Assembly (NCBI GenBank): GCA_021325515.1
Contig: JAJPHC010000051.1
Span: forward strand, 27,998 to 91,997
Reading direction: 5' to 3'
Source: Acidobacteriota bacterium
GTDB taxonomy: Bacteria > Acidobacteriota > Thermoanaerobaculia > Gp7-AA8
DNA length: 64,000 bases
Of this stretch, positions 31,909-50,671 are shown piece after piece. Positions within the stretch are counted from its first letter, which is position 1, and every line of letters begins with the position of its first letter. Both the position numbers and the translations under genes were made by a program. The notes below the pieces were generated by a model. That model made no database searches and was not told where the DNA came from. It was given only the letters and a program-made list of their open reading frames with translations.

Positions 31909-33831
31909 GTGACACCCCCTGCGACACTCACCCTGGTGACAACCGAACCGCGTCCGCCGACGCTGACGATCCTTCTGCTGCTCTCGGCAGCACTGCTCGT
32001 CGCCTTCTTCAGCGGCTACGAGCTGCTGGATCGCGCCGTATTCGTCAACATGTTGACCGGTGAGGCTCGCGAGCTGCTGCACGGACTCAGCGGCATCACA
32101 GGCTCCGTCCTTCTCACGATCTTCATCGGCTGGTATCTCGTCGGCCATCCGGTCCACGCGCCGCACCGCAGCGACGGGATCACCTTCTTCGACACACACC
32201 ATCGCCGCATCGAGCAGCTCCGCTGGCTGGTGCAGATGCGCTGGATCGCCGCCGGCTTCAGCCTCGCGCTGATCGTCATCGCAGTACCGCTGATGCGCGT
32301 GCTCTCCGCCGATCACCTTCCCGCGCTGCTCTCCTGGCTCGGCGTGATGGTGGGCGGCAATCTCTACTTCGGCACCGCGATCCATCGCGACCGGAACTTC
32401 GATCGCCAGATCATCGTGCAGATGACGCTCGATACGATCGTCGTCACCGGGCTCCTCAACGCGTCGGGCGGCATCGACAACCCGCTGCTCATCGCCTATC
32501 TCTTCGGCGTCTTCACCGCCGCGGTTCTCCTGCCGAAGAGAACGGCGCTGACCATGACGGCGATGACGGCCGCGGCGCTCATCGCTCTCGTCATGGGCGA
32601 GCTCGTCGGCATCCTCCCCCACGCGAACGTGCGGCTGATGCCGTCGTCCGCGCACAACCCACTCTTCGTCGTCGCGCGGCTCGCGTCGATCCTCGCCGTC
32701 ATGTTCCTCACCTCGTACTTCACGACGATGGTGATGGACCGGCTGCGCGAGAGCGAGTCCGAACTGCGCAGCAACGCGCACACGGCGACGTTCGAGCGGC
32801 GCAGACTCGAGGCCGTGATCGAAGCCGCCGGCTTCGGCATTCTCGTCGTCGGCTCCGACCGCCGCATCGCATGGATCAATCACCGCCTCGGCTCCTGGAT
32901 GTCGTGGGACGAATCGATGATCGGCGGCGAGTGCCCGCACGATCATGAGCGCGACCACTTCTGCTTCGCCTGCACGGCAGCGGAGACGCTGGCCAGCGGC
33001 CGCGCGCAGGAGCGCGAGGTCACGACCGGCATCGTCGGCTCGCAGCGTCACTTTCGCTATGCGACGTTCCCGGTGCGCAGCTCGACGATCGATGTCGCGC
33101 AGGCCGTGCACGTGATCGAGGAGATCACGTCGCGTAAGGAGCTCGAAGCGCAGGCTCTCCACACGAGCGGCCTCGCCGTCCTCGGCCAGCTCGCTGCCGG
33201 GGTCGCGCACGAGATCGGCAATCCGCTGTCATCGCTGCATGCGCGCGTGCAGTTGATGCGCAGGCATCCCGATCCCGGCGCAATCGACGAGAGCCTCGAC
33301 GTGCTCGAGAAGCAGATCGACCGGATGGGACGCATCGTACGCGGCGTATCGCACCTCTCGCGCAATCGATTCGACAGCCGTGGACTCGTCGATGTCGATG
33401 CCGTGGTGCGGGAGGCCGTGGCGCTGGTGAAGATCGATCGCCGTGCGGCCCGCGTCGCGATTCATGACGAGCTGCAGACGCTCCCGCCCGTGCGTGGAAT
33501 CCGCGATGAGCTGCTGCAGGTCGTCCTGAATCTGCTCTTCAACGCGGTGGAAGCGATGCCCGGCGGCGGGACCATTCACGCCACGACGTTCGCGAACAAC
33601 GGGAGCATCTGCATCGGCGTCAAGGACAGCGGACCGGGCATCGATGCGGGCGTGCGCGAGCGGCTGTTCGAGCCGTTCTTCACCACCAAGCACAACGGCA
33701 CCGGCCTCGGTCTCTCCATCTGCCGGAGCCTCGTGCAGGCGAATGGCGGTTCGATCGAAGTCGAGAGCGAGCCGGGACGCGGCGCGCAGTTCACGATCGT
33801 GCTGCCCGCGATGAAGGAGGCCGTCGCATGA
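31909..33831 (+). CDS. membrane sensor histidine kinase (multi-TM N-terminus, HisKA, HATPase)
   Basis: H-box AHEIGNPLSSL; N-box LLFNAVEAM; G boxes DSGPGID and GTGLGLSI; about 8 N-terminal TM helices. Start codon uncertain (track start is GTG). Confidence 0.75.
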   Translation: MTPPATLTLVTTEPRPPTLTILLLLSAALLVAFFSGYELLDRAVFVNMLTGEARELLHGLSGITGSVLLTIFIGWYLVGHPVHAPHRSDGITFFDTHHRRIEQLRWLVQMRWIAAGFSLALIVIAVPLMRVLSADHLPALLSWLGVMVGGNLYFGTAIHRDRNFDRQIIVQMTLDTIVVTGLLNASGGIDNPLLIAYLFGVFTAAVLLPKRTALTMTAMTAAALIALVMGELVGILPHANVRLMPSSAHNPLFVVARLASILAVMFLTSYFTTMVMDRLRESESELRSNAHTATFERRRLEAVIEAAGFGILVVGSDRRIAWINHRLGSWMSWDESMIGGECPHDHERDHFCFACTAAETLASGRAQEREVTTGIVGSQRHFRYATFPVRSSTIDVAQAVHVIEEITSRKELEAQALHTSGLAVLGQLAAGVAHEIGNPLSSLHARVQLMRRHPDPGAIDESLDVLEKQIDRMGRIVRGVSHLSRNRFDSRGLVDVDAVVREAVALVKIDRRAARVAIHDELQTLPPVRGIRDELLQVVLNLLFNAVEAMPGGGTIHATTFANNGSICIGVKDSGPGIDAGVRERLFEPFFTTKHNGTGLGLSICRSLVQANGGSIEVESEPGRGAQFTIVLPAMKEAVA

Positions 33832-35171
33832 CCGGACGGATTCTGCTCGTCGACGACGAAGACGTTTTCCGCGAAGACATCGCGTCATTGCTGCGGCACG
33901 AAGGCTACGTGTGCGAGGCCGCGGCTTCCGGCGCCGAAGCGCTGCGCATTGCACAGAGCGAGGCACCCGACATCATCCTGTCCGACATGGTGATGCCCGG
34001 GATCTCCGGCGCGGAGCTCGTGCGCACACTCGCAGCGGCATGTCCGGAGACGCCGATCGTGGTGATCACCGCGCATGCGACAGTGGAGACGACCGTCGAG
34101 GCCTTTCGCGCCGGTGCGACCGACTATCTCCTCAAGCCGCTAGTCATCGACGATCTCATTCGCAAGGTCGAGCGCTGCCTCGAGCATCGCCGGCTGCAGG
34201 CCGAGCTGCGCTTTCTGCGCAAGCAGGTCTCGCTCGCCGGAGGAGGCACGACGATCGTCGGCACGAGCCGGCCGATCCAGGCCGTGCGCGACCTGATCGC
34301 GCGCGTCGGCCCGTCGAACAGCAGCGTGTTGATCACCGGAGAGAGCGGCACCGGGAAGGAGCTCGTCGCGCGGGCGCTGCATGCTGCCGGCAGCAACGAG
34401 CGCGCGCCGTTCATCGCGGTGAACTGCGCCGCATTGCCGCGAGATCTCATCGAGAGCGAGCTGTTCGGGCACATGCGCGGCGCATTCACCGGAGCGATGC
34501 GCGACAAGCGCGGACTGTTCGAGCTTGCCAACGGCGGCACGCTCTTTCTCGATGAGCTCTGCGAGCTGCCGGTCGAGCTGCAGCCCAAGCTGCTGCGCGC
34601 GATCGAACAGCAGGAGATCCTGCCCGTCGGCGGGACGCGCGTCATCCGGACGAACGTGCGCATCATCGCGGCGACGAATCGCGTCCTGCGCGATGAGATC
34701 GCAACACGGCGCTTCCGCGAGGATCTCTATTTCCGGATTGCGGTCGTGGAGATCGCACTGCCGCCGCTGCGCGACCGACGCGAAGACATCCCGATGCTCG
34801 CCGACTTCCTCATCGCGCGCTTGAATGACCGCCTGAAGCGCCGCGTGAACGGCGTCGCCCACTCCGCGCTCCGCGTGCTGATGAGTGCACCGTGGCGCGG
34901 CAACGTGCGCGAACTGGAGAACGTGCTCGAGCGCGCGATGCTGCTGACGAACAACGAGATCATCGGCATCGAGGATCTCCCCGCCGAGCTGGCCGGCACA
35001 CTCGCGACGAGCGACCCCTCCGACGATCTGCGCAACGCCGTCCGAGCCTACGAACGGGAACACATCCGCCACGTGCTCGCAACGACGAACGGCAATCGCG
35101 AGGAAGCATCCCGAAGGCTCGGCATCGACGCCTCAACCCTCTACCGAAGAATGCGCGACCTCGCCCTTTAA
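33828..35171 (+). CDS. sigma-54-dependent response regulator (NtrC family: REC, AAA+ sigma54-activator, Fis-type HTH)
   Basis: LLVDDE receiver; GESGTGKE Walker A; GAFTGA sigma54-contact motif; ELFGH; C-terminal HTH ..NGNREEASRRLGI..TLYRRM. The stop TAA overlaps the first T of repeat copy C. Confidence 0.9.
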   Translation: MTGRILLVDDEDVFREDIASLLRHEGYVCEAAASGAEALRIAQSEAPDIILSDMVMPGISGAELVRTLAAACPETPIVVITAHATVETTVEAFRAGATDYLLKPLVIDDLIRKVERCLEHRRLQAELRFLRKQVSLAGGGTTIVGTSRPIQAVRDLIARVGPSNSSVLITGESGTGKELVARALHAAGSNERAPFIAVNCAALPRDLIESELFGHMRGAFTGAMRDKRGLFELANGGTLFLDELCELPVELQPKLLRAIEQQEILPVGGTRVIRTNVRIIAATNRVLRDEIATRRFREDLYFRIAVVEIALPPLRDRREDIPMLADFLIARLNDRLKRRVNGVAHSALRVLMSAPWRGNVRELENVLERAMLLTNNEIIGIEDLPAELAGTLATSDPSDDLRNAVRAYEREHIRHVLATTNGNREEASRRLGIDASTLYRRMRDLAL

Positions 35172-35209
35172 GTTGGTTTTCGGGGGTCACACCTGGAAAA
35201 TCAACTTAA
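35168..35209. repeat. 42-bp palindromic element family 1, copy C
   Basis: TTAAGTTGGTTTTCG-GGGGTCACACCT-GGAAAATCAACTTAA; same orientation as copy A. Confidence 0.9.
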
Positions 35210-35241
35210 CGGCGGACAGACAGGCAGGCAGAAGGCACCCG

Positions 35242-35283
35242 TTAAGTTGATTTTCCAGGTGTGACCCCCGAAAACCAACTTAA
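35242..35283. repeat. 42-bp palindromic element family 1, copy D
   Basis: TTAAGTTGATTTTCC-AGGTGTGACCCCC-GAAAACCAACTTAA; identical to copy B. Copies C and D are separated by only a 32-bp spacer with no cargo. Confidence 0.9.
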
Positions 35284-35308
35284 CTTTGCACGATTGGGGG
35301 GGCGGGGG

Positions 35309-35328
35309 GTCTTGCAGAATTGCAAGAC
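35309..35328. promoter_or_regulatory. palindrome GTCTTGCA-gaat-TGCAAGAC (candidate enhancer/UAS for the adjacent NtrC-type activator)
   Basis: Perfect 8-bp arms with 4-nt spacer, about 45 bp upstream of a sigma-54-like -24/-12 element and about 70 bp upstream of the first ORF of the cytochrome operon. Confidence 0.35.
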
Positions 35329-35366
35329 CTTTGACCGTAAGTCGTTGATTCTTCTAGGGAGCGTTG

Positions 35367-35383
35367 GCGGCCCCGGCATTGCG
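35367..35383 (+). promoter_or_regulatory. weak sigma-54-type -24/-12 promoter candidate (cGGccccggcatTGCg)
   Basis: GG at 35369-70 and GC at 35381-82 have the canonical 12-nt GG..GC spacing and the -12 reads TTGC. The -24 half is a poor match to TGGCAC. Confidence 0.25.
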
Positions 35384-35397
35384 ATGGTCCGCTCGCA

Positions 35398-35679
35398 ATG
35401 GATGACGACCTCATGGCTCGCCAACTCGTGCGGGCGGTTCAGGAAGACCTTCGGCTCTGGCTGAACGTCCCTCGCCTCGAGCCTGAGCTCATCGCCAATC
35501 TCTATCTTCGGATCCGCGACATCCTCCGCCGCGATGGCGCACTCGACGAGCTCGCGCTCGCCGTCTACCTCACCGCCACCGCGTGGCAGCCCTCCGTTCC
35601 CGAATCCGCATCCGTCATTCCGACGCTTCGTCGAGATCTCGAAACAGTCATCAACGCAAAAGGAGAAAACAACCCATGA
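35398..35679 (+). CDS. hypothetical small protein (93 aa), first ORF of the cytochrome operon
   Basis: Strong GC3 codon bias. The stop overlaps the ATG of the cytochrome c gene (ATGA). No SD upstream; it could be leaderless if transcription starts at the predicted sigma-54 site. Confidence 0.4.
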   Translation: MDDDLMARQLVRAVQEDLRLWLNVPRLEPELIANLYLRIRDILRRDGALDELALAVYLTATAWQPSVPESASVIPTLRRDLETVINAKGENNP

Positions 35680-35978
35680 AGAAACTCATCGCAATCCTCG
35701 CGCTCGCCGCACTCCCCGTTCTCGCCGCTGAAGACGGCCCGGCTCTGTTCAAGGCGAAATGCGCCGGCTGCCACGGCGCGACCGGCGCCGGCGACACCTC
35801 GGTAGGCAAGAGCCTCAAGGTCGTACCACTCGGCAGCGCCGAAGTGCAGAAGATGAGCGACGCAGACATCACGAAGGTCATCCAGACCGGCAAGGGCAAG
35901 ATGCCCGCCGTCGGCAAGGCCTTCACGCCTGATCAGCTCAAGGCCCTCGTCGCCGTCATCCGCTCGTTCAAGAAGTGA
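35676..35978 (+). CDS. class I c-type monoheme cytochrome (c6/c553-like)
   Basis: AAAGGAG 7 nt before the ATG; signal peptide MKKLIAILALAALPVLA; single CAGCHG haem-binding site; Met ligand region ..GKGKMPA.. Confidence 0.8.
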   Translation: MKKLIAILALAALPVLAAEDGPALFKAKCAGCHGATGAGDTSVGKSLKVVPLGSAEVQKMSDADITKVIQTGKGKMPAVGKAFTPDQLKALVAVIRSFKK

Positions 35979-35989
35979 GGTCAGGTCCG

Positions 35990-36454
35990 ATGGAAGCCTT
36001 CGATCGCTCGATGAATCGCCGCACACTGCTCAACTGGTTTCTCGGCACGTCGTTCGGCGCGCTGATCGCGTCGGTGATCTACCCCGTGCTGCGGTACATG
36101 ACTCCACCGAAGATCGCCGAGGCGAGCACGAATCAGGTCGAAGCCGGCGAAGTGAATGATCCCGCGCTGCTCGACAAGGGCTACAAGATCATCCGCTTCG
36201 GCGCGGAGCCGGTGATTCTCGTCAAGGCCGCGGAAAACGATTTCCGCGCTTTCTCCGCGACGTGCACGCATCTCGACTGCATCGTCGGCTTCCAGAAGGA
36301 CCAGACGCGCATCTACTGCAACTGCCACGGCGGCTGCTACGACCTCACAGGCCGCAATGTCTCCGGTCCGCCGCCGCGGCCTCTCACTCCCTACAAAGTC
36401 AATGTCGTCTCGAAGGGCTCGGGTCCGGGCCTGATCGTCGTATCGAAGGCGTAA
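35990..36454 (+). CDS. Rieske [2Fe-2S] iron-sulfur protein (bc/b6f-type)
   Basis: GAGG 8 nt before the ATG; twin-arginine-like [13 protein letters not shown]; cluster boxes CTHLDC...CNCHGGCY. The track start at 35975 is a GTG overlapping the upstream stop. Confidence 0.85.
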
Positions 36455-36456
36455 TC

Positions 36457-39231
36457 ATGAGCGCAATCTTTGAGTGGCTCGATGACCGGCTCGGCGTCTC
36501 CGTCCTGCGCGAGGTCGCATCACACAAGACCGTACCCTCGCATCGCTACACCATCCTCTACTACCTCGGCGGCATGACGCTCTTCTTCTTCCTCGTCCAG
36601 GTCTGCACCGGCGTTCTGCTGATGCTCTATTACAGACCGTCGGCCGAAGAAGCCTTCGAGTCGGTGGAGTTCATCATGACCACAGTGCCGTTCGGATGGC
36701 TCATCCGCAGCGTGCACTCCTGGTCTGCCAATCTCATGGTGTTCTTCGCCTTCCTCCATCTCGTGAGCGTCTTCTTCATGAAGGCGTACCGGCCGCCGCG
36801 CGAAGTCACCTGGATCAGCGGCGTCATCGTGCTCTTCCTCGTCATGGGCTTCGGCTTCTCCGGCTATCTGCTGCCGTGGAATCAGCTCGCGTTCTTCGCG
36901 ACGAAAGTCGGCACGGACATCGCCGGCGTCGTCCCGCTCGTCGGCCCATGGATGGTGCGCTTCCTCCGCGGTGGTGATCGGGTGAGCGGCGCGACTCTTT
37001 CGCGCTTCTACGGCTGGCACGTCGCGATCCTTCCCGCGATCACGACCGTCATCCTCGGATTGCATCTCGCGATGGTGCAGCTCAAAGGGATGAGCGTGCC
37101 GAAGTCGATCGAGGACGATGCGAATTCGCGCAAGCCGATGAAGTTCTTCCCCCACTTCGCACTGCGCGATCTCACCGGATGGATCATCGCCCTCGGCTTC
37201 GTCGCCGCACTCGCCGCCCTCTTCCCCTGGGAGCTCGGCGACAAGGCTGATCTCTTCGCGCCCGCCTACGAGAACATCCGCCCCGAGTGGTACTTCGTCT
37301 TCATGTTCCAGACGCTGAAGCTCGTGCCCGGCGGCTCCATCGCCGGCATCGAGTACGAGGCGATTCCGATCATGCTGTTCAGCCTCGCCGGCGCTCTGCT
37401 GATGGCTGTCCCCTTCCTCGACCGCAGACTCAAGCGCGATGGAAAGAGCCCGCTCTTCACCACGATCGGCGTGCTCGCCATCCTCTTCATCGTCGGCATG
37501 ACGTGCTGGGGCTACGGCAACATCGTGCCGCTGCTGGTCATGGCGCTCGCCGCATCGCTGCTCGTCCTGCTCGGATGGATCACGAGGCCTCCGCGCGCGA
37601 TGATGATGATCGCGCTGCTGTTCCTCGCCGCACACGCCTGGGGCGCGACGCCGAAGACGTCGTGCACCACCTGCCACAACAGCGAACTATTCGATGCCGC
37701 CGGCAAAGCGAAGGTGACTTCGTTCCTCACGAAGGACGTGCATGCGCAGATCGGCCTCTCCTGTCACGATTGTCACGGCGGCAATCCCGATCCTGCACTG
37801 AGCACCGATCCGGCTGCCGCCATGGATCCCAATTACAAGAAGAACCCGTTCCGCGGAATGCCGGCGCGCAAGGACATTCCCGACTTCTGCGGCCGCTGCC
37901 ACTCCAGCGCGGCCTTCATGAAGCAGTACAACCCGGCCGCGCGCGTCGATCAGGTCAGTGAGTACTGGACGAGCCGCCACGGCCAGCTTCTCAAGCAGGG
38001 CGATACGAATGTCGCGGTCTGCATCGACTGCCATTCCGTGCACGACATCCGCCGCAGGATCTCACCCGACTCGCCCGTCTACAAGACGAAGGTTGCGGAG
38101 ACCTGCAGCCGCTGCCACTCCGACGCGAACAGGATGGCGAAGTACGGCATCCCCACCGATCAGTACGCGCGCTGGCGCGTGAGTGTGCACGCCAATGCGG
38201 TGCTCAACAAGGGCGACATCGCAGCGCCTAGCTGCAACGACTGTCACGGCAATCATGGAGCGACACCTCCCGGCGTCGAGTCGATCAGCTTCGTCTGCGG
38301 ACGCTGTCACGCGCGCGAAGCGGAACTGTTCCGCAAGAGCCCGAAGTACGACGCCTGGCAGAAGCACAACGAGATGATGAACGGGATGGCGTGCTCCACG
38401 TGTCATGCCGACGGCAAGCGCGCCAGCGTCACCGTGACGCACTTCAGCGAATGCCTCACCTGCCACGAGAATCACGGCGTCGTCCGTCCGACGATCGCCC
38501 TGCTCGGCAATCTGCCGGAAACACCCTGCGCGTTCTGTCATGAAGGCGTCGGCCCGCTCGCCGCACGCATCGCGGAGATGCCGGAAAAGGCCGAGCACTT
38601 CAAACAAGTGCGCGACAGCTTCCTCAAGGTTGCCGATGCCCAGCATCTGAAAGGCAATGACCGTTTCGACTGGCTGGTTGACCAGGCGCTGCACCTCCCC
38701 TTCCATCGCGTCGGCGACGCGAAGCAGAACGACAAACTGCGTCCCGAGTTCCTACGGCTCTTCGACAAGTTCCGCATCGGCAAGACGCACTACGTCTACA
38801 AGGATGTGAAAGGGAACGACGTCTCGGTACCGGTCCGCAGTTGTGGCGACTGTCATGAAGAAAAGGATTCCGCCGGCCTGGCGAATGCGCGCGCGTATCT
38901 CGATGCCACGCGCAGCGTGACCAGCATGGTCGGACGCGCCGATCGCATCCTGCTCTCCGCGCATCGCGGCGGTGTCGAAGTGCGCAAGGTACGCGCCGAG
39001 CTCGATGGAGCCATCGACTCCCAGATCGAGCTCGAGACGCTGGTGCACACGTTCAACGCGCCTGAGGTGCAGGCCAAACAGAAAGAAGGACTGCAGCACG
39101 CCGAGGCGGCGCTGGTCGCCGGACAATCGGCGCTCGACGAGTTGCTGTATCGCCGCAAAGGATTGTTGATCGCGCTCGGAATCATCCTTCTGGTTCTCGT
39201 CGCGCTGATCACGAAGATCAGGACGTTGTAG
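36457..39231 (+). CDS. cytochrome b (b6 plus subunit-IV-like, 8+ TM) fused to a C-terminal multiheme (11 x CxxCH) cytochrome c domain
   Basis: The N-terminal about 420 aa has the cytochrome b His ligands and the PEWY motif ([14 protein letters not shown]). The C-terminal about 500 aa carries CTTCH, CHDCH, CGRCH, CIDCH, CSRCH, CNDCH, CGRCH, CSTCH, CLTCH, CAFCH and CGDCH, plus a final TM anchor. The track start at 36262 is artefact; the ATG at 36457 follows the Rieske stop. Confidence 0.85.
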
Positions 39232-40848
39232 ATGAGCGAAGCCGAGCTCGAGCTGCGCGTTCAGCGCCTCGAGACCGCGCTGGCGGAGCTGACGCGCCGC
39301 GTAGACGGTGTAGGACAGGCGCCCTCGCCTGTCCACGCGCCCTCGCCTGTCCACGCGCCCTCGCCTGTCCAGGCGCCCTCGCTCCACTTCGACACGGATG
39401 CCGCGGGACAGGCGGAGGCGCCTGTCCTACAGGACTCCCCTGACTGGCTCACCCTGGCCGGCTTCTCCGTCCTCATCTTCGGCGGTGCGTATCTTCTCCG
39501 CGCCTTCACGGAGTCGGGCGTGCTGCCGCCGGTCGGCGGTGTCATCGCCGGTGCGGTGTACGCGCTCATCTGGATCTGGATCGCCGATCGCAAGCATGCG
39601 GTCTACCTCGCCGCGACCGCGGCCGCAATCGCGTTCCCGCTCGTGTGGGAGACGACGGCGCGCTTCCACTACGTGACGCCGGCGGCCGGCGGCTTCCTCG
39701 CGGCGATCATCGGCGTGATCCTCATCTTCGTCGCCTGGCACAACAGCAAGGAAGCGATCGCGTGGATTGCCAGCATCGGCTCGATCGCCGTCACGATCGC
39801 GATCGTCAAGCCGGACGCGATGCTGCCGCTCATGATCGCCGGCAGCGTCGTCGGCGCGGCAACGCTGCACGTCGCCATCCTGATGCGATGGAAGTTCGTC
39901 GCGCTCCCCGCCGCGGTCATGACCAACGCGCTTGCGTCGATGACCATCGGCATCCCGATTCTCCGCGGCGGCTTCGAGCGCCCCGGCGAAACGATCGCGG
40001 CGCTCATCGGCTTCGCCGCAGTCTGGCTCGCGACGATCTGCTATCGCCGCATTCATTACAACGAGCACCTCTCCTTCTTCGACATCATCGAGAGTGCGCT
40101 ACTGCTCTTCATCGGCGTCGGCGGCGCGGCCTTCGTCGCCGGACTGACGCATCGCTATGGCGTCATCGTCGCAACGATCTATGTGATCGCCGCGGTCGCC
40201 GCGTATCTCGAGGCGTCGAGAAAAGACGGCATGCGCACGTGGCTCACCTCGGTCGCGCTCTATCTGATCTGGCTGGCGATGCTGATCGCGCTCGAGCTGC
40301 GCGCGGCCGCCGTCATCGCTGCGATTCTCGGCGTCGCTTCGGCGGAATTCGGACGCCGCCTGCAATGGCCGGCACTCGCCGCGCAGAGCGTCCTCTGGAT
40401 CGCCGGCGCCTTCCTGATCGGCGGCTTCTCCGGCCCCGTCGCCATTCTGATCTCCGCCTGCATCCTGATCGCGTGCCTGCGTGTGCACCTGCCGCTCGCT
40501 CACACTCTGCTGCTCGCGCTCTTCGCCGTTTCGCTCTTCCTGCTTGCCGGACATGATCGCGGCGCACTCGTCCGCACGCTTCTGCTCGCCGCCTTCGCAG
40601 CAATCCTCGGATTCGGCTCGAAATACACGCATGCGGCGATTCCGGTCGCTCGCCTCCTGCTCGTCGCAGGTGGATTGAAATTACTCGCAGAGGATGTCCG
40701 CACCGAGCGCGCGGCCATCCTCGTTATCTCCTTTGCTGCCTATGGGTTCGCCATGCTCGCCGTCGCGAGATGTGCGCGCCGTCACACCACTTCGCCACTT
40801 GAGTCACAAAGAACCCCCCTCACTGACACATTAAGTAGCAATCGCTAA
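39232..40848 (+). CDS. DUF2339-like polytopic membrane protein with N-terminal coiled-coil
   Basis: MSEAELELRVQRLETALAELTRR coiled coil, then about 14 TM helices. Contains an in-frame copy of palindromic element family 2 in the linker. Confidence 0.55.
   Translation: MSEAELELRVQRLETALAELTRRVDGVGQAPSPVHAPSPVHAPSPVQAPSLHFDTDAAGQAEAPVLQDSPDWLTLAGFSVLIFGGAYLLRAFTESGVLPPVGGVIAGAVYALIWIWIADRKHAVYLAATAAAIAFPLVWETTARFHYVTPAAGGFLAAIIGVILIFVAWHNSKEAIAWIASIGSIAVTIAIVKPDAMLPLMIAGSVVGAATLHVAILMRWKFVALPAAVMTNALASMTIGIPILRGGFERPGETIAALIGFAAVWLATICYRRIHYNEHLSFFDIIESALLLFIGVGGAAFVAGLTHRYGVIVATIYVIAAVAAYLEASRKDGMRTWLTSVALYLIWLAMLIALELRAAAVIAAILGVASAEFGRRLQWPALAAQSVLWIAGAFLIGGFSGPVAILISACILIACLRVHLPLAHTLLLALFAVSLFLLAGHDRGALVRTLLLAAFAAILGFGSKYTHAAIPVARLLLVAGGLKLLAEDVRTERAAILVISFAAYGFAMLAVARCARRHTTSPLESQRTPLTDTLSSNR
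39309..39430. repeat. palindromic repeat element family 2, expanded copy (internal 18-bp unit ACGCGCCCTCGCCTGTCC x3) inside a CDS
   Basis: It translates in frame as VGQAPSPVHAPSPVHAPSPVQAPSLHFDTDAAGQAEAPVLQ. The ends are GTAGGACAGGCG... and ...GCCTGTCCTAC. Confidence 0.8.
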
Positions 40849-40898
40849 CTCCAGACTGTGACCGCTGAAATGGGATTTGAACTCGAAGGAGACAAGCA

Positions 40899-43049
40899 AT
40901 GACACGACTTCACCGCGGCCTGATCCTCATCGCGCTTATGGCCGTCATCTCGCTGCCGATGTTCGCGGCGACGCGCGGACGCGCCGCCGGTTCGCCTGCG
41001 AATCCGGCCACGCCAACGGCAGCGGCATTCCCGCCGACTGCGAAAGAGGCATACCTCACCGATGACACGCTCGCGTATATCCGTCCCGGCCTCAAGGTGA
41101 AGCTCAACTCCGTCGCGGTCGGCACGGACGGCAAGGTCAACGTCGATCTCTCGATCACCGACGACTTCGATCAGCCGATCGATCGCCTCGGGAAAACGAC
41201 GCCGGGCGCAGTCTCCATCAGCTACATCCTCGCCTGGTACAGCCCCACGACCCGCCAGTACACCGCGTACACCACGCGTGTACAAACGACTCCCGCCACG
41301 AGTCCGCATCCCGGCGTCAGCGCAACTCAGGCAGGAACCGATTCCGGCGGCACCACCACCGATCTCGAAACCGGCCATGTGAAGTACCTCTTCAAGACGG
41401 TGCTTCCCACCGGCTTCGACGGCACCAGGACGCACACACTCGGCATCTATGCCTCGCGCAACATGACCGATACGATCGGCAAGATCTATTACGCGAACGT
41501 CGAGTACGACTTCCGTCCCGATGGCAACAAGGTCACGGACGTATGGGACAAGGTCAATCTCGCCACGAGCTGCAACAACTGCCACGATCCCCTTTCCGCA
41601 CATGGCGGTGCGCGCCGCGATCCGAAACTGTGCGCGCTCTGCCACTCTCCGCAGACCATCGATCCCGACACCGGCAACACGGTCGATTTCAAGGTGATGA
41701 TCCACAAGATCCATCAGGGCGCGACTCTGCCGAGCGTGAAGGCCGGAACGCCGTATCAGATCATCGGCTTCGGCCAGAACGTCCTGGACTTCTCCAAGGT
41801 CGCGCTTCCGCCGGGACAGGACACTCGCAATTGCGCCTTCTGCCATGTCGGCAGCGATCCGACGAAGAAGCCCGCACAGAACGACGTCTGGCTGACCAAG
41901 CCGTCGCGCGATGCATGCGGTTCCTGCCACGACGACATCGACTGGGCCACAGGCAAGAATCACGTCGGCGGCCTTCAGAAGGATGACAGCGCGTGCGCCA
42001 GTTGCCACGTTCCGGACAGCGGGAAGGAATTCGACGCGTCCATCAAGGGCGGCCACGTTCTTCCGGTTGCCTCCAAGCAGCTCAAGGGCATCACCGCCAC
42101 GATCACCAAGGTCGTGAATGCGGCACCCGGCAAGAAACCGACGGTGACCATCGCCGTCAAGAACGGCGACGGCACGCCGGTCGACGGCAGCAAGCTGACG
42201 ACCTTCGCGCCGATCATGGCCGGCCCAACCACGAGCTACACCAAGTACTTCCGCGAGAGCGGCATCGCATCCGCCACGAACACGAACGTCGCGACCTACG
42301 ACGCGGCCACCGGCCTCACCTCGTTCACGTTCGCCAACGCGATCCCCGCCGATCAGACCGGCACATGGGCCTTCACTGCAGACATCTATCGCAACGTCAC
42401 ACTGAAGCAGAACAATGACAAGGCCGATCTGACGCAGCGCGAAGCGGCGTTCAACAACATCGTCTACATCCCGATCACCGGCACGACGGCGACGCCGCGC
42501 CGCACCTCGGTCATCCTGTCCCAGTGCAACAGCTGCCACAATGCGCTCGCACTGCACGGCGGCCAGCGCCAGAACACGCAGGAATGCGCCATCTGCCACA
42601 ACCCCACGAACAATGACGTTGCACAGCGCCCGGCGAGCGAAGGGCAGCCGGAGTCGATCTCCTTCCAGCGTCTCATCCATCGCATCCACAAGGGCGGAGA
42701 GTTGACGCAGGACTTCACCGTCTACGGCAATAACAAGTCCCGCCACAACTACAACGACGTGGAGTATCCGGGAGACATCAACCATTGCGCGAAGTGCCAC
42801 ACGTCGACCTCGTACCAGCTGCCGCTGGCGACGGGCATCGACTCCGTGACGACACTCCGCGATTACTATTCGCCGCAAGGCCCCGCGACCGCTGCGTGCC
42901 TTGGCTGCCACGACAATCGTGACGCCGCGGCGCACGCGTTCCTCAATACGGCAACGTTCCCCGGCCAGCCCACTACCCCGGCCGAAGCGTGCGCAACGTG
43001 CCACGGTGCTGGTAAGGACTGGGCGGTCGACAAGGTGCACGCCCAGTAA
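40899..43049 (+). CDS. MtrC/OmcA-like outer-surface decaheme c-type cytochrome (10 x CxxCH, beta-rich inserts)
   Basis: GGAG before the ATG; signal peptide; CNNCH, CALCH, CAFCH, CGSCH, CASCH, CNSCH, CAICH, CAKCH, CLGCH, CATCH in 716 aa. Thr/Gly-rich beta-type segments lie between the haem clusters. The antisense ORF 40845-43229 is artefact. Confidence 0.7.
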   Translation: MTRLHRGLILIALMAVISLPMFAATRGRAAGSPANPATPTAAAFPPTAKEAYLTDDTLAYIRPGLKVKLNSVAVGTDGKVNVDLSITDDFDQPIDRLGKTTPGAVSISYILAWYSPTTRQYTAYTTRVQTTPATSPHPGVSATQAGTDSGGTTTDLETGHVKYLFKTVLPTGFDGTRTHTLGIYASRNMTDTIGKIYYANVEYDFRPDGNKVTDVWDKVNLATSCNNCHDPLSAHGGARRDPKLCALCHSPQTIDPDTGNTVDFKVMIHKIHQGATLPSVKAGTPYQIIGFGQNVLDFSKVALPPGQDTRNCAFCHVGSDPTKKPAQNDVWLTKPSRDACGSCHDDIDWATGKNHVGGLQKDDSACASCHVPDSGKEFDASIKGGHVLPVASKQLKGITATITKVVNAAPGKKPTVTIAVKNGDGTPVDGSKLTTFAPIMAGPTTSYTKYFRESGIASATNTNVATYDAATGLTSFTFANAIPADQTGTWAFTADIYRNVTLKQNNDKADLTQREAAFNNIVYIPITGTTATPRRTSVILSQCNSCHNALALHGGQRQNTQECAICHNPTNNDVAQRPASEGQPESISFQRLIHRIHKGGELTQDFTVYGNNKSRHNYNDVEYPGDINHCAKCHTSTSYQLPLATGIDSVTTLRDYYSPQGPATAACLGCHDNRDAAAHAFLNTATFPGQPTTPAEACATCHGAGKDWAVDKVHAQ

Positions 43050-43060
43050 GGGAGGCGGCG

Positions 43061-44026
43061 ATGCGAATCGAATTTGCTTGGGTCCGCGGGCTCGAGGGCC
43101 CGCGGGCTCCCGGTGTAGGACAGGCGCCCTCGCCTGTCCAATCCGCCAGTGGCAGGCGGGGGCGCCTGTCGTACACATTGCTCTTCCTGATCGTTCTGAG
43201 TGTTCCGTTGCTTGCCCAGGAGGCGGCAACGGTTCCCTCCTGCGGCGATTGTCACGACGAACAGGCCAAGGCCTTCATCACCAATCCCCACGGTCACGGC
43301 AAAGCTGTCAATGGTGTGATTCCCAATGCCGTCTGCGAAAAGTGCCATGGCGACGGCAAGGGCCACATCGAAGGCGGCGGCGACAAGAGTCTCATCTACA
43401 AACCGGCCGGAATGGCAGGCTCGAACAAGACCTGCCTTACCTGCCACGACCTCAATAACGATCGCGTGTCGCGTCATGCCGGCACTCATGCGAACTCTCC
43501 GGCGGTGAACTGCCTCACCTGTCATTCGGTTCACTCCGCGAAAGCATCACCGCTGCTCGTCAAGAAGCAGCTCGAGCTCTGTGCGAACTGCCACGCGACT
43601 CAGGTCGCCTCCTTCCGCGACAAGCCCTACGCGCATCGCCTCGGCCGCGGCGGCATGGAGTGCAGTTCCTGTCACGAGCCGCACGGACGTCCGCAGCGCG
43701 AGATGCTGCGCAAGACCACGGCGGGCGAGCTCCCCTGCGTTGGCTGCCACGTGCAGCAGCGCGGGCCATTCGTCTTCCAGCACGGCTCCGCGGCGATCGG
43801 CGACTGCATGACGTGCCATGAGCCGCACGGCTCTGCGAATCCGAAGCGCCTCATTCGCGCGACGGTCACGCAGCTCTGCATCGAGTGCCATTCGCCCATC
43901 GAAGGCAACACACTCGGCTCACAGCCGCCGGCGTTCCACAACCTCTCTCTGTCGCGCTACCAGAGCTGCACGACCTGCCATACCGCGGTCCACGGCTCCA
44001 ATCGCGACCCGCAGTTGTTCAAATGA
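43061..44026 (+). CDS. MtrA/DmsE-like periplasmic decaheme c-type cytochrome (10 x CxxCH in 321 aa)
   Basis: GGAGG 6 nt before the ATG. CGDCH, CEKCH, CLTCH, CLTCH, CANCH, CSSCH, CVGCH, CMTCH, CIECH, CTTCH. The size and haem density match MtrA. The signal-peptide n-region is interrupted by a family-2 palindromic element. Confidence 0.75.
   Translation: MRIEFAWVRGLEGPRAPGVGQAPSPVQSASGRRGRLSYTLLFLIVLSVPLLAQEAATVPSCGDCHDEQAKAFITNPHGHGKAVNGVIPNAVCEKCHGDGKGHIEGGGDKSLIYKPAGMAGSNKTCLTCHDLNNDRVSRHAGTHANSPAVNCLTCHSVHSAKASPLLVKKQLELCANCHATQVASFRDKPYAHRLGRGGMECSSCHEPHGRPQREMLRKTTAGELPCVGCHVQQRGPFVFQHGSAAIGDCMTCHEPHGSANPKRLIRATVTQLCIECHSPIEGNTLGSQPPAFHNLSLSRYQSCTTCHTAVHGSNRDPQLFK
43115..43174. repeat. 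palindromic repeat element family 2, short copy, in-frame inside the MtrA-like signal peptide
   Basis: GTAGGACAGGCGCCCTCGCCTGTCCAATCCGCCAGTGGCAGGCGGGGGCGCCTGTCGTAC, translated VGQAPSPVQSASGRRGRLSYT immediately before the hydrophobic core LLFLIVLSVPLLA. Confidence 0.8.
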
Positions 44027-44038
44027 AGGAGTGAGACG

Positions 44039-45901
44039 ATGACCATCAGAAGAATCTTCGCGCTCCTCCTCTTCACCGCTGCAACGGCCGGTCAGGCACA
44101 AGTGGCGCCCTGGGACTTCGAAGCCGGCTATCGCTGGCTCAATCTCAAAGGCAGCCCCGGGATGTATCGCACGCAGGTCAACGAGCGCGAGGGATTTCTC
44201 ATCCGTAGTTTCAACCTCGCGACCACCGGACCCAACATGGACCGGCTCGTCGTTCACGTCAGCGATTTCGGCACGAGTCCCGCCGGCTCGCTCCGCCTCG
44301 AGGCCTGCAAGCAGGATCTCTATCGCTTCACTCTCGGCTACCGCTCCGCGGATCAGTACTCCATCTTCTTCGGCCAGCATTACTACAACCGTGCACGGCG
44401 CACCCTCGACGCGGATCTCGAGCTCTTCCCCGAGTCGCGCATCGCGCCCTACGTCGGCTACTCCTTCAACCGCTTTGCAGGTCCCGGCGAAACCACGTAT
44501 CACTTCGGCCAGGATGAATTTCTGCTGCAGCAGAAGCAGAAGGATATCGATCAGGAAGTGCGCGTCGGTGCGAGCTTCAAGTACGACTGGGTGTACGGCA
44601 GCTTCACACAAGGGTGGCGGCGTGCACACAGCACGATCGACTCCTCGCTCTTCCCCGGTGCCGGCAACGGCAACAACAACGATCCCATCCTCGGCCAGCC
44701 GGTCAACGCGACCTCGATCACGCGCCACGACACGGAAAAGACGAAGACTCCCTTCACCAATCTCTACGTCACGCTGCAACCGCTCTCGCGCGGCCGCGTG
44801 ATCGCGAATTACGTTCATCTCTCCGCAGACTCGGATGGCAATGAGAGCGAGGCGGCCTACGGCAGCTTCGCCTCGTTCGCCATCAGCCGCTTCTTCACAG
44901 GCGCGACGGAAACCGCGACATCGCACGCGAAAAACACCACGTGGCGCAGCGGCGTTCGCGGTGAGTACACCATCGCCGAGGGTGTGGATGCCTTCGCCGG
45001 ATATCAGAAGGACCATCGCGATCTCAACGGCAGCGCGCTGATCGATACGCTGTATCTGCAGAGCATCACGTTCGGCGGCGTCGACCAGCGCGACTTCCGC
45101 GACATCCTCGCCTCCGAGAACTCGATTGAGCGCGAGGAGACGACGACCAGTGCCGGCGTTTCCGTCCGCAATCTCGGCAACCTCGCAGTGCGCGCCGAAT
45201 TCCGCCAGGCGAAAGTCGAAGCGGATGTCGCACCCGATCTCTCCGAGATCGTCGTCCCCGGAAATCAGGAAGGCTCGTTCGAGCGGCGCATCAACACACT
45301 CGACACCAACGCGCAGTACGCAACGCACGGCTGGCTCCTCGGCGCTGCCTGGCGCAGCGACAGTGCGAATCAGCCGATCTTCCGCACTGATTACAAGGAC
45401 CGCGACCGCTATCGCCTGCGCGCGCAATGGTCGCAGTTCAAGTGGGCGAAGATCACCTCCGTCTACGAGCGCACGACGATGTCGAATGACACCTCGTTCG
45501 AAAGCCGCGTCCGCAACTACACGACCGACGCCGCGATCATGCCCACGGAAGGCATTACGCTGCACGCCTCGGTGTCATCCTTCAAGAGCGACAGTACGAT
45601 CTCGTATCGCCGCCCGCAGACCTTCGTCGTCACGACCTCCGTCCACAGCGAGAACGGTCACACGCGCGAAGGCGGCATCGGCTTCGCGCTGCCGCACTCC
45701 ATCTACTTCGATGCGAACATCGCACGGCTGCACAATGACGGCACGTACCCGTTCAAGCTCAACCGCTACAACGGCCGGATGACGTTCCCCTTGAAGTCGC
45801 ATTACGGCCTCGCCGTCGAATACAACAAGGACCGCTACGTGGAGTCGAGCTCACTCGATTACGACGCCACGCGCTGGGGCCTCTTCCTTCGGATTCAGTA
45901 G
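44039..45901 (+). CDS. large outer-membrane beta-barrel protein, MtrB/PioB-like porin partner of the decaheme pair
   Basis: GGAGTGAG before the ATG; signal peptide MTIRRIFALLLFTAATAGQAQ; 620 aa of alternating Y/F/W-rich amphipathic strands; positioned directly after the MtrA-like gene, as in mtrCAB. Confidence 0.55.
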   Translation: MTIRRIFALLLFTAATAGQAQVAPWDFEAGYRWLNLKGSPGMYRTQVNEREGFLIRSFNLATTGPNMDRLVVHVSDFGTSPAGSLRLEACKQDLYRFTLGYRSADQYSIFFGQHYYNRARRTLDADLELFPESRIAPYVGYSFNRFAGPGETTYHFGQDEFLLQQKQKDIDQEVRVGASFKYDWVYGSFTQGWRRAHSTIDSSLFPGAGNGNNNDPILGQPVNATSITRHDTEKTKTPFTNLYVTLQPLSRGRVIANYVHLSADSDGNESEAAYGSFASFAISRFFTGATETATSHAKNTTWRSGVRGEYTIAEGVDAFAGYQKDHRDLNGSALIDTLYLQSITFGGVDQRDFRDILASENSIEREETTTSAGVSVRNLGNLAVRAEFRQAKVEADVAPDLSEIVVPGNQEGSFERRINTLDTNAQYATHGWLLGAAWRSDSANQPIFRTDYKDRDRYRLRAQWSQFKWAKITSVYERTTMSNDTSFESRVRNYTTDAAIMPTEGITLHASVSSFKSDSTISYRRPQTFVVTTSVHSENGHTREGGIGFALPHSIYFDANIARLHNDGTYPFKLNRYNGRMTFPLKSHYGLAVEYNKDRYVESSSLDYDATRWGLFLRIQ

Positions 45902-45912
45902 ATCCCTCTCCC

Positions 45913-45940
45913 CTTCTCCCCCGCCCTCGCGGGGGAGAAG
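45913..45940 (+). terminator. GC-rich stem-loop CTTCTCCCCCGC-cctc-GCGGGGGAGAAG after the operon
   Basis: Perfect 12-bp stem, 12 nt after the stop of the beta-barrel gene. Confidence 0.45.
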
Positions 45941-45980: not shown

Positions 45981-47411
45981 ATGCCTACTGTGCGGCCGCT
46001 CCTCGCGGCGGTCCTGTTTCTCGTCACCATTGGCGCCGCGGCTCAGCAGCGCGTCGCGATCGTTGACGTCACCGTCATCGATGTGGATGCCGCCGACGCC
46101 GCGCATGCGGTCGCGGCACACCAGTCCGTCGTCATCACCGGCTCTCGCATCTCCGCGCGAGGGCCCGCCGCCAAAATCCGAATTCCCCGAGATGCGACGG
46201 TCATCGACGGCTCGGGCAGGTTTCTGATCCCGGGACTCTGGGACATGCATGTGCACACGCTGCCGGAAGTGCGACGGCCGAAAGCCGTCGAGATCTGGTT
46301 GCCGCTGTTCGTGGCCAACGGCGTTACTTCCGTGCGCGACATGGGCGGATCCGATGACGCGTTGACGAACACGCGATTGCGCATCGCCCGGGAGCGCCTG
46401 CTCTCGCCCCGCTTGATCGCTGCCGGGTCGGCGATCGACGGCTTTCCACCTCAGTTCGGCACCGGAGTCCGCTCGCCCGCGGAGGCACGGCAGGTTGTCG
46501 ATGCACATCAGAAATCGGGAGCCGATTTCATCAAGCCCTACAACCTCCTTACGCGCGAGGAGTACTTCGCGATCATCGACGAGGCGAAGAAAGTGGGCTT
46601 GCCGGTCGCGGGTCATGTCCCCCTGAGTCTCACCGTGCTGGAAGTTTCCGATGCCGGCCAGCGCAGCGTCGAGCACCTGACTGACATTCCCGCTTCGTGC
46701 TCCACGATCGAGGCCGAGCTTCGCCAGGAACGGCTGCGCACGCCGCTGTCGGATTTCCGCGCGTGGCAGCGGGCGCGCTGGACCGAAGAGACGCGCGCCG
46801 CAGCATCACATTCGCCCGCGCGCTGCCGCGCACTGTTTGAACATCTGACGCGCAACGGAACATGGATCGTCCCGACGCTCGTCAATAAGAAGTCGGCACT
46901 CGACGTCGCATCGCGGCTGCGCGATCCGGTCCTGCTTCAATACATGGAGCCGGCCACGCGCGCAGCGTGGGAAAAGAGCGCAGCGATGAGCCCCGCCACG
47001 CCGGACGAAGTTGCGAGCCGCACGGCGAGATACGAGTCGATGCTAAGGCTCACCGGCGAAGCAAATGATGCGCATGCCCTTCTGCTGGCGGGAACCGATA
47101 CCGGCAGTCCGTTTCCTCTCGTCCCCGGATTCAGCCTTCATGAAGAGCTGGCCATCCTTGTCGAATCCGGACTGGCGCCGCTGCAGGCACTCCGCAGCGC
47201 CACGCTCTCGCCGGCGCGCTACCTTCACCGCGAGCGCGACCTGGGAACGGTCGCGCGGCGCAGGATCGCCGATCTCGTCCTCCTCGACAAGAATCCGCTG
47301 GAGGATATTCGCAATACGCAATCGATCGCCGCTGTGATCCTCGGCGGCCGCCCTCTGATGCGCGACGCATTGGACAAGATCCTCGCTGATGCAGCGATGG
47401 CTGCGAAATAA
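45981..47411 (+). CDS. amidohydrolase family metallo-hydrolase (secreted)
   Basis: Signal peptide; GLWDMHVHT metal-binding His-x-His; downstream GTD..S; family-typical length 476 aa. Confidence 0.75.
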   Translation: MPTVRPLLAAVLFLVTIGAAAQQRVAIVDVTVIDVDAADAAHAVAAHQSVVITGSRISARGPAAKIRIPRDATVIDGSGRFLIPGLWDMHVHTLPEVRRPKAVEIWLPLFVANGVTSVRDMGGSDDALTNTRLRIARERLLSPRLIAAGSAIDGFPPQFGTGVRSPAEARQVVDAHQKSGADFIKPYNLLTREEYFAIIDEAKKVGLPVAGHVPLSLTVLEVSDAGQRSVEHLTDIPASCSTIEAELRQERLRTPLSDFRAWQRARWTEETRAAASHSPARCRALFEHLTRNGTWIVPTLVNKKSALDVASRLRDPVLLQYMEPATRAAWEKSAAMSPATPDEVASRTARYESMLRLTGEANDAHALLLAGTDTGSPFPLVPGFSLHEELAILVESGLAPLQALRSATLSPARYLHRERDLGTVARRRIADLVLLDKNPLEDIRNTQSIAAVILGGRPLMRDALDKILADAAMAAK

Positions 47412-47426
47412 TTTCGGCTGCTGCGA

Positions 47427-48038: not shown

Positions 48039-48165
48039 TGAAGTCCTCCCGGCACGAAACGTCCGGCAGAATAACCGAGGTCCACTCGCGAAAGGAAACG
48101 GTTAGAAGTTCTTATCCGAACCAGGGATCGCGGATTGCACCACAGGCCTTTCAGGAGAGTGAACG

Positions 48166-49034: not shown

Positions 49035-49145
49035 GCTCCTCCCGTCGCGAACGCGCTGTCGGAACACATCGCGCGCACACGGCCGCAATCATAATGAACC
49101 TGAACGGCGGCATCAGCACCGCTGCACTGCGTTAATACGCCGCTC

Positions 49146-50576: not shown

Positions 50577-50671
50577 CATTCGCATGTTCAGTTCTGCCGC
50601 GGAAGCGGTCGCCGGCTGCGGGCCGTGAAAATAGTCTAGCACGCGGTGTCGCAATCCGCTGCAGCGGCTGG

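Follow-up and report, generated by a model that had tools for sequence, protein, structure and literature searches.

A predicted envelope-spanning electron-transfer operon that joins a Rieske/cytochrome b module to an Mtr-type conduit in an uncultured member of the Thermoanaerobaculia

Introduction

The MtrCAB complex of Shewanella (6R2Q) is encoded in the order C-A-B and combines a decaheme protein of β/5-heme/β/5-heme layout, a 10-heme MtrA wire, and a 26-strand barrel. All of these features are shared by the operon described here, a block of eight genes at 35398-45901 on the + strand of a 64,000-nucleotide (nt) stretch of DNA, hereafter referred to as the window, from the metagenome-assembled genome (MAG) of an uncultured member of the Thermoanaerobaculia (Acidobacteriota). 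The organisms with which it was compared are likewise all represented by uncultured MAGs. The operon differs from the Shewanella system in that its barrel is undetectable as MtrB/PioB by Pfam, NCBIfam, or PDB-sequence profile searches, and in that its MtrC-like protein is without a lipobox cysteine. It differs from the MtrCAB relatives in its quinol-side partner, which is a Rieske/cytochrome b complex and not CymA, NetBCD, or MtoC. An earlier reading of the window, made from the sequence without database searches (the original prediction), had put the operon forward as an NtrC/sigma-54-associated island in which a bc-type core is wired to an Mtr-type conduit.

The MtrCAB clusters have been set out in Groups 1-7 by Baker et al. 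2022 (PMC8805035), who reported no inner-membrane quinol oxidoreductase beside the acidobacterial Group 5 clusters of the Acidobacteriia/Bryobacterales. Those clusters were found via recognizable MtrB homology, and the same search would probably miss the barrel of the present operon. Mtr homologs in Acidobacteria have been noted previously (PMC8787282, PMC9671151). Porin-multiheme clusters from peat MAGs of the Acidobacteriota and Verrucomicrobiota (bioRxiv 10.64898/2026.05.27.727921) are, as here, syntenic, reminiscent of Mtr/Omc systems, and divergent in sequence. The available portion of that preprint describes four architectures, from the Terriglobales, Bryobacterales, Palsa-1439, and Limisphaerales, and within that portion the terms Thermoanaerobaculia, MtrB, cytochrome b, and Rieske have no occurrences.

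The extHIJKLMNOPQS cluster of Geobacter sulfurreducens likewise joins a porin-like protein and multiheme cytochromes to a Rieske protein (ExtO) and a b6-type cytochrome b (ExtP) (PMC5877670). Its porin, ExtI, is a phosphate-porin-like protein of ~45 kDa, however, unlike the 26-strand MtrB-like barrel of the operon, and its cytochromes fall outside the MtrC and MtrA families to which the decahemes described here belong. The ext cluster further contains a rhodanese-like protein and a selenocysteine cytochrome, and it is without a cytochrome b-multiheme fusion or a DUF2339-like gene. When the operon was compared with the Ext models, the matches to ExtN and ExtO were marginal (E about 0.006-0.008), and no rhodanese or ExtI-like porin was present.

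An MtrA/MtrB-type conduit accompanied by a small monoheme cytochrome c, as in the operon, is found in the MtoAB-MtoD-CymA/MtoC and PioAB systems, and an inner-membrane fusion of b-type and c-type cytochromes is represented by the 'Cytbc' b561-diheme protein encoded beside mtoAB in the Gallionellaceae (PMC5566968). Unlike the operon, the Mto/Pio clusters are usually without MtrC, their inner-membrane partner is of the NapC/NirT or b561 type, and their barrels are recognizable as MtrB/PioB. With the bc1 and b6f complexes the operon shares the four heme-b histidines, the PEWY motif, the split into a b6 and a subunit-IV part, and a Rieske protein of the PetC type in which both boxes are present. 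In place of cytochrome c1 or f, however, it has an 11-heme domain that is fused to cytochrome b and carries its own C-terminal helix.

A literature search of incomplete coverage yielded no description of a Thermoanaerobaculia bc-plus-Mtr operon or of its cryptic MtrB-type barrel family, and none of a Rieske/cytochrome b-undecaheme fusion paired with MtrC and MtrA. The operon is built from already known module types. It provides a candidate for how the Thermoanaerobaculia and other Acidobacteriota link the quinone pool to acceptors outside the cell (iron, manganese, or humic matter). Soils, sediments, and hot springs harbor Acidobacteriota in abundance, and known Fe(III) reducers belong to the phylum.

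Organization of the operon

Provided in Table 1 are the coordinates of the eight genes and of the features that precede them. The open reading frames (ORFs) are co-directional, and the junctions between them measure, in order, -4 (an ATGA overlap), 11, 2, 0, 50, 11, and 12 nt, with GGAG-type ribosome-binding sites preceding most of the starts. The longest of these junctions, that of 50 nt, falls exactly between the bc half and the Mtr half (40848/40899). A terminator scan revealed no terminator-like site on the + strand inside the eight-gene block, the sole + strand sites lying within the start of the next gene. A sigma-70-type scan, to which the check for internal promoters was limited, revealed no promoter-like sites. 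The exact eight-gene order is also present in GCA_016853205.1 (loci L081/L086, with a barrel that is 87% identical) and in a lineage from a JGI metagenome (L083/L084, 61%), and the upstream neighbors of the block differ in all three lineages.

On the strength of the short junctions, the terminator scan, and the recurrence of the gene order, the single eight-gene operon of the original prediction stands. The ATGA overlap at 35676 had been correctly recognized, and the 2-12 nt given for the remaining gaps must be amended, as one gap is 50 nt. Position 35309, from which the genes had been taken to start, is in fact the left edge of a palindrome, and the first gene begins at 35398; the other coordinates were accurate.

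With family scores above the curated cut-offs and a gene order kept in dozens of species, these features lie far beyond chance. Each of the computational checks proposed with the original prediction gave a favorable outcome. The block at 35398-45901 is a real envelope-spanning electron-transfer operon, from whose sequence we infer the direction of flow and the physical coupling of the modules. That its parts have been correctly identified and that they act in trans-envelope electron transfer is, taken jointly, a claim we make with considerable confidence. The operon probably connects the quinone pool of the membrane with extracellular minerals and moves respiratory electrons between the two.

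In what we take to be the best explanation, and one that is reasonably though not strongly favored, the eight genes form a single operon with its own sigma-54-type promoter and encode a complete route for electrons through the cell envelope. Menaquinol would be oxidized at the Qo site of the Rieske/cytochrome b complex, and the Rieske cluster would hand the electrons on to the anchored 11-heme wire. The periplasm would be crossed directly or via the monoheme cytochrome c to the MtrA-like decaheme, which would be threaded through the barrel. Exit would occur via the MtrC-like decaheme, the acceptors being Fe(III)/Mn(IV) minerals, humic matter, or others outside the cell. For the DUF2339-like protein, g5, a role as an accessory of the bc module is envisaged, and expression would need sigma-54 together with an activator bound to the conserved palindrome.

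Table 1 Features of the operon and of its upstream region
Feature	Position	Strand	Remarks
Sensor histidine kinase (PilS-like six transmembrane helices, PAS_4, HisKA, HATPase_c)	31909..33831	+	Pfam, NCBIfam
NtrC-family sigma-54 enhancer-binding response regulator (REC, AAA+, Fis-type HTH)	33828..35171	+	Pfam, NCBIfam
REP-doublet-like element, two 45-nt perfectly complementary arms	35168..35283	.	Between activator gene and operon promoter
Upstream box TTGCACGATT	35286..35295	+	Invariant in three lineages (alignment A2)
Palindrome TCTTGCA-GAAT-TGCAAGA, candidate activator (UAS) site	35310..35327	.	~50 nt upstream of -24 element
Box TCGTTGATTCTTC	35342..35354	+	Between palindrome and promoter; conserved in alignment A2
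-24/-12-like sigma-54 promoter core GGCCCCGGCATTGC	35369..35382	+	GG-N10-GC, canonical spacing; 8/11 consensus positions matched
g1, 93 amino acids (aa), conserved cytoplasmic protein	35398..35679	+	Stop overlaps cytochrome c start (ATGA)
Secreted monoheme class I cytochrome c	35676..35978	+	PF13442 6.7e-14, PF00034; CAGCH at residue 29, Met-Pro at 76
Membrane-anchored PetC-type Rieske 2Fe-2S protein	35990..36454	+	PF00355 4.9e-13 (above cut-off); RR motif
Cytochrome b fused to 11-heme domain, 924 aa	36457..39231	+	PF00033 8.5e-52, PF00032; 11 CxxCH
g5, 538 aa, polytopic membrane protein	39232..40848	+	Remote relative of DUF2339
MtrC/OmcA-family decaheme, 716 aa, 10 CxxCH	40899..43049	+	TIGR03507 486.9 bits vs cut-off 209.3, residues 74-714
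MtrA/DmsE-family periplasmic decaheme, 321 aa, 10 CxxCH	43061..44026	+	TIGR03508 211.5 bits vs cut-off 192.2
MtrB-like 26-strand outer-membrane barrel, 620 aa	44039..45901	+	AlphaFold model

The MtrC-, MtrA-, and MtrB-like proteins

The overall layout of the 716-aa decaheme is that of a β domain, five hemes, a second β domain, and five further hemes. The protein matches PF22113 (3.5e-52) and, among PDB sequences, MtrF (1.4e-27), OmcA (5e-22), and MtrC (about 1e-9 to 1e-10). It is predicted to be extracellular and to provide the surface terminal of the conduit. The 321-aa decaheme aligns with the MtrA chain 6r2q_A over residues 59-315 (E = 2.1e-34), and its N-terminal region bears an in-frame REP-like insertion. 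As had been predicted, the NCBIfam assignments of the two proteins are to the OmcA/MtrC and DmsE/MtrA families and not to the nitrite or hydroxylamine enzyme families. With the barrel placed last, across gaps of 11 and 12 nt, the gene order is that of mtrCAB.

The 620-aa protein had been expected to form an outer-membrane barrel of 20 or more strands. Indeed, the AlphaFold model, calculated from 48 homologs, has 26 strands and a pLDDT of 83.5, and by two independent methods its best structural match is MtrB, with an identity of 13% in the structural alignment. The Foldseek match to MtrB has an E value of 3.2e-15 and a TM of 0.67, the next match lying at 4e-10. In relatives of the barrel, sub-threshold matches to MtrB_PioB (PF11854) were observed for 3/48 and 4/26 sequences, the best at 2.1e-5. 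It is the structure comparison, together with these few matches, that connects the protein to MtrB. Judged from the model, it appears to be a deeply diverged MtrB-type barrel that has the fold and the genomic role of MtrB and lies outside PF11854 by sequence. The family is sizable, with 1043 clusters at 50% identity (E ≤ 1e-3). It goes unrecognized as MtrB/PioB by Pfam and NCBIfam, and surveys that depend on MtrB as a marker probably undercount the complete Mtr-type conduits of the phylum.

The quinol-side module

The first gene, g1, encodes a protein with no Pfam or NCBIfam match and no signal peptide. Homologs at the same place are 93% identical in L081 and 71% identical in L083, and the nucleotide substitutions fall mostly at codon position 3 (26/32 and 38/62, respectively). 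Given that the homologs hold their position and that the substitutions cluster at third codon positions, g1 is considered to be a real gene.

In the Rieske protein, the two boxes are located at residues 92 (CTHLDC) and 110 (CNCH), and a hydrophobic segment is predicted at residues 16-34. The match to the TM_PetC anchor is sub-threshold (35.5 bits versus a cut-off of 37.1), and those to the NCBIfam b6f Rieske models are below their cut-offs as well. Note that box II contains a glycine in place of serine (CNCHGG). Such a replacement suggests a lower-potential, menaquinol-type Rieske cluster, which, if present, would ease outward flow.

The 924-aa fusion begins with a cytochrome b6-like region (residues 1-215) and a subunit-IV-like region (residues ~245-355), followed by extra transmembrane helices and an internal signal-peptide-like helix. 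The C-terminal part consists of a periplasmic 11-heme domain, with CxxCH motifs at 403-800, a helical stalk, and a transmembrane anchor at 903-921. Among PDB sequences, the respective matches are to cytochrome b6 (E = 6e-58) and subunit IV (E = 5e-6). The heme-b ligands are His 87/His 101 and His 188/His 203, with b6-type spacing (13 and 14 residues between), and the Qo motif PEWY is positioned at 276-279. There is no cysteine at the b6 heme-ci position (YYLGG). The scores of the cytochrome b lie below the NCBIfam cut-offs, namely 234.8 versus 325 for PRK03735 (cytochrome b6) and 215.3 versus 290 for the ExtP equivalog NF040969. All of the defining motifs of the Rieske/cytochrome b core that had been proposed were thus found, and its C-terminus does carry 11 CxxCH motifs.

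No cytochrome c1 or f is encoded in the operon; its place is taken by the fused, membrane-anchored 11-heme domain, part of which resembles the DmsE/MtrA family (3.4e-13, below cut-off), and there is a separate monoheme cytochrome c. Hundreds of homologs of the fusion are present in Thermoanaerobaculia MAGs, where 'cytochrome b N-terminal domain-containing protein' is their sole annotation. The heme part is, in many relatives, a separate protein of ~550 aa, which implies that the fusion joins two formerly separate subunits. The unfused state can be seen in L016 (1378-4184), in which a cytochrome b of 384 aa and a multiheme protein of 603 aa are encoded by separate, slightly overlapping ORFs.

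The original prediction had labeled g5 as DUF2339. The label holds only by way of the homologs, 15 of the 25 aligned matching PF10101 at E ≤ 0.01 (best 9.4e-10), and not by way of g5 itself, for which E = 3.9 (6.5 bits, cut-off 33.6). In the AlphaFold model of g5 (pLDDT 86), a cytoplasmic helix at the N-terminus is followed by a disordered linker and by a repeat array of ~18 membrane helices, and a structure comparison gave no informative solved neighbor. A remote member of the uncharacterized DUF2339 superfamily is hereby tied to a respiratory module.

The family relationships of these proteins bear on the nature of the electron acceptor. The DmsE family, of which the MtrA-like protein is a member, has dimethyl sulfoxide (DMSO) reduction among its functions, and the cytochrome b is close to ExtP of the selenite/tellurite-linked Geobacter ext cluster (NF040969, 215 bits; PMC5877670). 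Both relationships would suit a soluble or periplasmic substrate (DMSO-type, selenite/tellurite, or nitrogen oxide), with the barrel acting as an uptake or conduit porin. We regard such a role as highly improbable. No catalytic subunit of the molybdopterin, NrfA/HAO, or rhodanese type is present in or beside the operon, and the 716-aa protein is a full-length member of the MtrC/OmcA family. Moreover, the ExtP score falls below the model cut-off of 290, and the 26-strand barrel is like MtrB and unlike the smaller ExtI porin.

The putative promoter region

Upstream of the operon, the stop of the kinase gene (33831) overlaps the start of the activator gene (33828) by 4 nt. The activator matches PF00158 (4.6e-66), PF00072, and PF02954, and its GAFTGA motif is found at residue 218. 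Immediately 3' of its stop codon lies the REP-doublet, the hairpin of which has, as RNA, a folding energy of -86.6 kcal/mol (z = -11.3).

Alignment of the upstream regions of the three lineages (alignment A2) showed that the core of the palindrome is kept as CTTGCA-N4-TGCAAG (35311-35326). Within the window the palindrome occurs once, and among 87 loci it was found only 5' of the same operon in L081/L086/L087 and L083/L084. The box that follows, TCGTTGATTCTTC, could be the site of an architectural (IHF-like) protein. The counterparts of the sigma-54 core are GGTCCCGGCATTGC in L081 and GGCCCCGCGCTTGC in L083, and its position is conserved. The palindrome and the weak -24/-12 element of the original prediction are, therefore, both retained 5' of the operon where it recurs in two further lineages. 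A conserved promoter-like region was seen only upstream of g1. A sigma-54-type promoter is likely to be situated there, the evidential value of GGCCCCGGCATTGC deriving from its conservation and its position and not from statistical enrichment. In this genome, the adjacent NtrC-type regulator is plausibly the activator of the operon. No rpoN gene was seen in the window.

Conservation of the modules in related species

A scan of the GTDB species representatives yielded 79 loci, nearly all from Thermoanaerobaculia or unclassified Acidobacteriota MAGs. Across these loci the MtrC-MtrA-barrel triad is nearly invariant: an MtrA-like gene lies directly 5' of the barrel in 69 of the 71 loci with room for it, and 55 of 56 have an MtrC-like gene upstream. 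Of the 38 loci with full flanks, 10 encode a cytochrome b of the type seen in the operon no more than 10 kb from the triad; it may be upstream or downstream and co-directional or divergent. The recurrence of the bc module near the triad in differing orientations argues for a functional linkage and not for the mere inheritance of one arrangement. The original prediction had called this linkage unusual when compared with the CymA-dependent arrangement in Shewanella. It does differ from the latter, but it is less singular than was implied, being found in about a quarter of the related species, and the Geobacter ext cluster already unites a porin and multiheme cytochromes with a Rieske/cytochrome b pair.

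The same survey raises the alternative that the two halves of the operon are independent, with the bc complex, cytochrome c, and g5 employed in other anaerobic or general respiration and the conduit fed by a quinol oxidase encoded elsewhere. In 28 of the 38 related species with full flanks, the bc module is absent within 10 kb of the triad, and thus the conduit does not require a bc complex; where the module is present, its position and orientation vary. The g5 family tracks the bc module and not the Mtr module, accompanying the former in the nearer loci (L015, L027, and L016). Other candidate inner-membrane modules occur elsewhere, such as the NrfC-like 4Fe-4S protein in L005, and the longest gap in the operon, that of 50 nt, separates the halves. 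Nevertheless, we view independence as improbable. The gaps do not exceed 50 nt throughout, no terminator-like site intervenes, the conserved promoter-like region lies only 5' of g1, and the sigma-70-type scan found no internal promoter. In addition, the eight-gene order has been kept even though the barrels are 61% identical and the flanks differ, and unrelated functions would not be expected to come together repeatedly and independently in as many as 10 of 38 species.

Several features of the related loci were observed in the course of the survey. In L005, which has no bc module, the NrfC-like 4Fe-4S dicluster protein (1906-3195, - strand, and neighbors) is encoded upstream of the triad together with a CycH-like biogenesis fragment, a possible sign that the inner-membrane module paired with this conduit varies from species to species. 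Two tandem copies of the whole MtrC-MtrA-barrel triad are found in L059 (6823-17122), from a Holophagales MAG. In distant Thermoanaerobaculia loci, an extra multiheme cytochrome gene, weakly MtrA/undecaheme-like, is located directly 3' of the barrel (e.g., L047, 12368-13336, and L052, L055, L060, L064, L076, and L079). It recalls the tetraheme gene downstream of mtrB in Group 5 of Baker et al. A weak match to an IS200-like Y1 transposase lies between the bc and Mtr modules of L016 (4259-4777), and in L085 a Y1_Tnp gene follows the barrel.

Downstream of the operon, the window contains at 45981-51283 genes for an amidohydrolase, a RibD_C protein, a glyoxalase, a polyketide-cyclase, a zinc alcohol dehydrogenase, and a second RibD_C protein, all of which are absent from L083 and L085. 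In those two loci the barrel is followed directly by a GerE response regulator, a HisKA_3 kinase, FtsX/ABC, and PPK2, the window equivalents of which start at 51406, and synteny with both loci resumes at approximately this position. The block at 45981-51283 is an insertion or deletion beside the operon.

Mechanism and direction of electron flow

A number of observations weigh against the favored explanation, that of a single sigma-54-dependent operon encoding a complete path across the envelope. One is the above-mentioned absence of a nearby bc module from most of the related species. Another is that the sigma-54 core is a weak match to the consensus, and with 8 occurrences in the window versus 11.5 expected, its pattern shows no enrichment. 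The kinase/activator pair does not adjoin the operon in either related lineage and is absent from the upstream 7-9 kb. A conserved regulatory link via the pair was rejected, as the upstream genes differ in both lineages. With the pair non-adjacent in relatives and a REP-like hairpin standing before the promoter, the term NtrC-associated is shown to apply for this genome alone. Of the association originally predicted, the identity of the kinase and activator was borne out by Pfam and NCBIfam, and their adjacency to the operon did not extend to the two related lineages.

The remaining points concern the proteins themselves. The barrel has no Pfam or NCBIfam match, PF11854 included, even at E ≤ 10, and a link to MtrB by sequence was rejected, profiles A1 and A4 (of the barrel and its distant relatives) having found nothing among PDB sequences. 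The 716-aa decaheme has a plain signal peptide (...SLPMFAATRG), and there is no cysteine in its first 50 residues, hence no lipobox. It is the lipobox cysteine that anchors Shewanella MtrC as a lipoprotein. Rieske clusters usually lie well above bis-His multiheme wires in potential, and transfer to the MtrA-like protein may thus be uphill unless the fused hemes are of unusually high potential. Lastly, the evidence throughout consists of inference from the sequences of uncultured MAGs.

With respect to direction, we lean slightly toward outward (reductive) flow, on the grounds that MtrC/OmcA-type proteins are tied to the reduction of solids and that the named cultured relatives reduce Fe(III). 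Thermoanaerobaculum aquaticum, for example, is cited as an iron reducer with MtrC and MtrA homologs (PMC9671151). A Q-cycle would conserve more energy than oxidation of the CymA type, but it needs a higher-potential acceptor chain.

With flow in the inward direction, Fe(II), reduced minerals, or humics outside the cell would be the electron source, and the conduit, acting like MtoAB/PioAB, would pass the electrons to the monoheme cytochrome c. The bc complex might then be reversed by the proton-motive force, with quinone reduced for the production of NAD(P)H, or electrons might branch to a terminal oxidase. The monoheme class I cytochrome c of the operon parallels MtoD of Mto iron oxidation (PMC8805035, PMC5566968), Rieske/cytochrome b complexes normally partner with high-potential c-type proteins, and bc1 reversal is the accepted model for iron oxidation in Acidithiobacillus ferrooxidans (summarized in PMC5566968). 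Furthermore, MtrCAB homologs with MtrC occur in iron-oxidizing Betaproteobacteria (PMC8805035). Even so, inward flow seems unlikely to us: surface decahemes of the MtrC/OmcA type are classically associated with solid-phase reduction, the cultured relatives mentioned in the literature all reduce Fe(III), and no oxidase, RuBisCO, or other lithoautotrophy gene is present in the operon or was seen in the window. The direction cannot, however, be settled by sequence alone.

A more elaborate version of the path can be envisioned in which the fused 11-heme domain extends the bc complex across the periplasm and docks directly on the MtrA-like decaheme inside the diverged barrel, with the DUF2339-like protein as a scaffold or assembly factor. 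Protein-bound hemes would then lead without a break from the Qo site to the surface, and no carrier would have to diffuse between them. We offer this version as speculation and consider it unlikely. If true, it would be a respiratory supercomplex of a new type, extending across both membranes, and would give DUF2339 its first function.

REP-like elements and neighboring genes

The REP-doublet upstream of the operon is one instance of a 38-45-nt element that occurs as inverted pairs, here at 35168-35283 and again at 15920-15957 (-) and 16454-16491 (+); one copy is also present in L086/L087. The second pair brackets an ORF (15963-16460) that encodes a 165-aa Macro-domain protein, and for this reason a RAYT/IS200 origin of the 38-nt inverted repeats was rejected. 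The element looks like a mobile palindrome of the REP/REPIN type.

A second, short palindrome, GGACAGGCG-N4-CGCCTGTCC, is found at 9596, 39313, 39406, and 43118, in frame within coding sequence. The copy at 39313 comes with a tandem array of 3.6 units of 18 nt (39319-39382). Its translation reads GQAPSPV(HAPSPV)n within the disordered linker of g5 and GVGQAPSPV within the n-region of the signal peptide of the MtrA-like protein. In L083 the insertions in g5 and the MtrA-like protein are missing at the same sites, and the MtrA-like protein has GVGQAPSP between hemes 1 and 2. The short palindrome appears to be a translated, mobile REP-like element.

The window also encodes two large Ser/Thr protein kinase-TPR proteins (16640-19513, + strand, and 29135-31831, - strand). 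A second two-component pair, of the OmpR type, is located at 25887-28071, upstream of the kinase/activator pair, and the neighborhood as a whole is rich in regulators.

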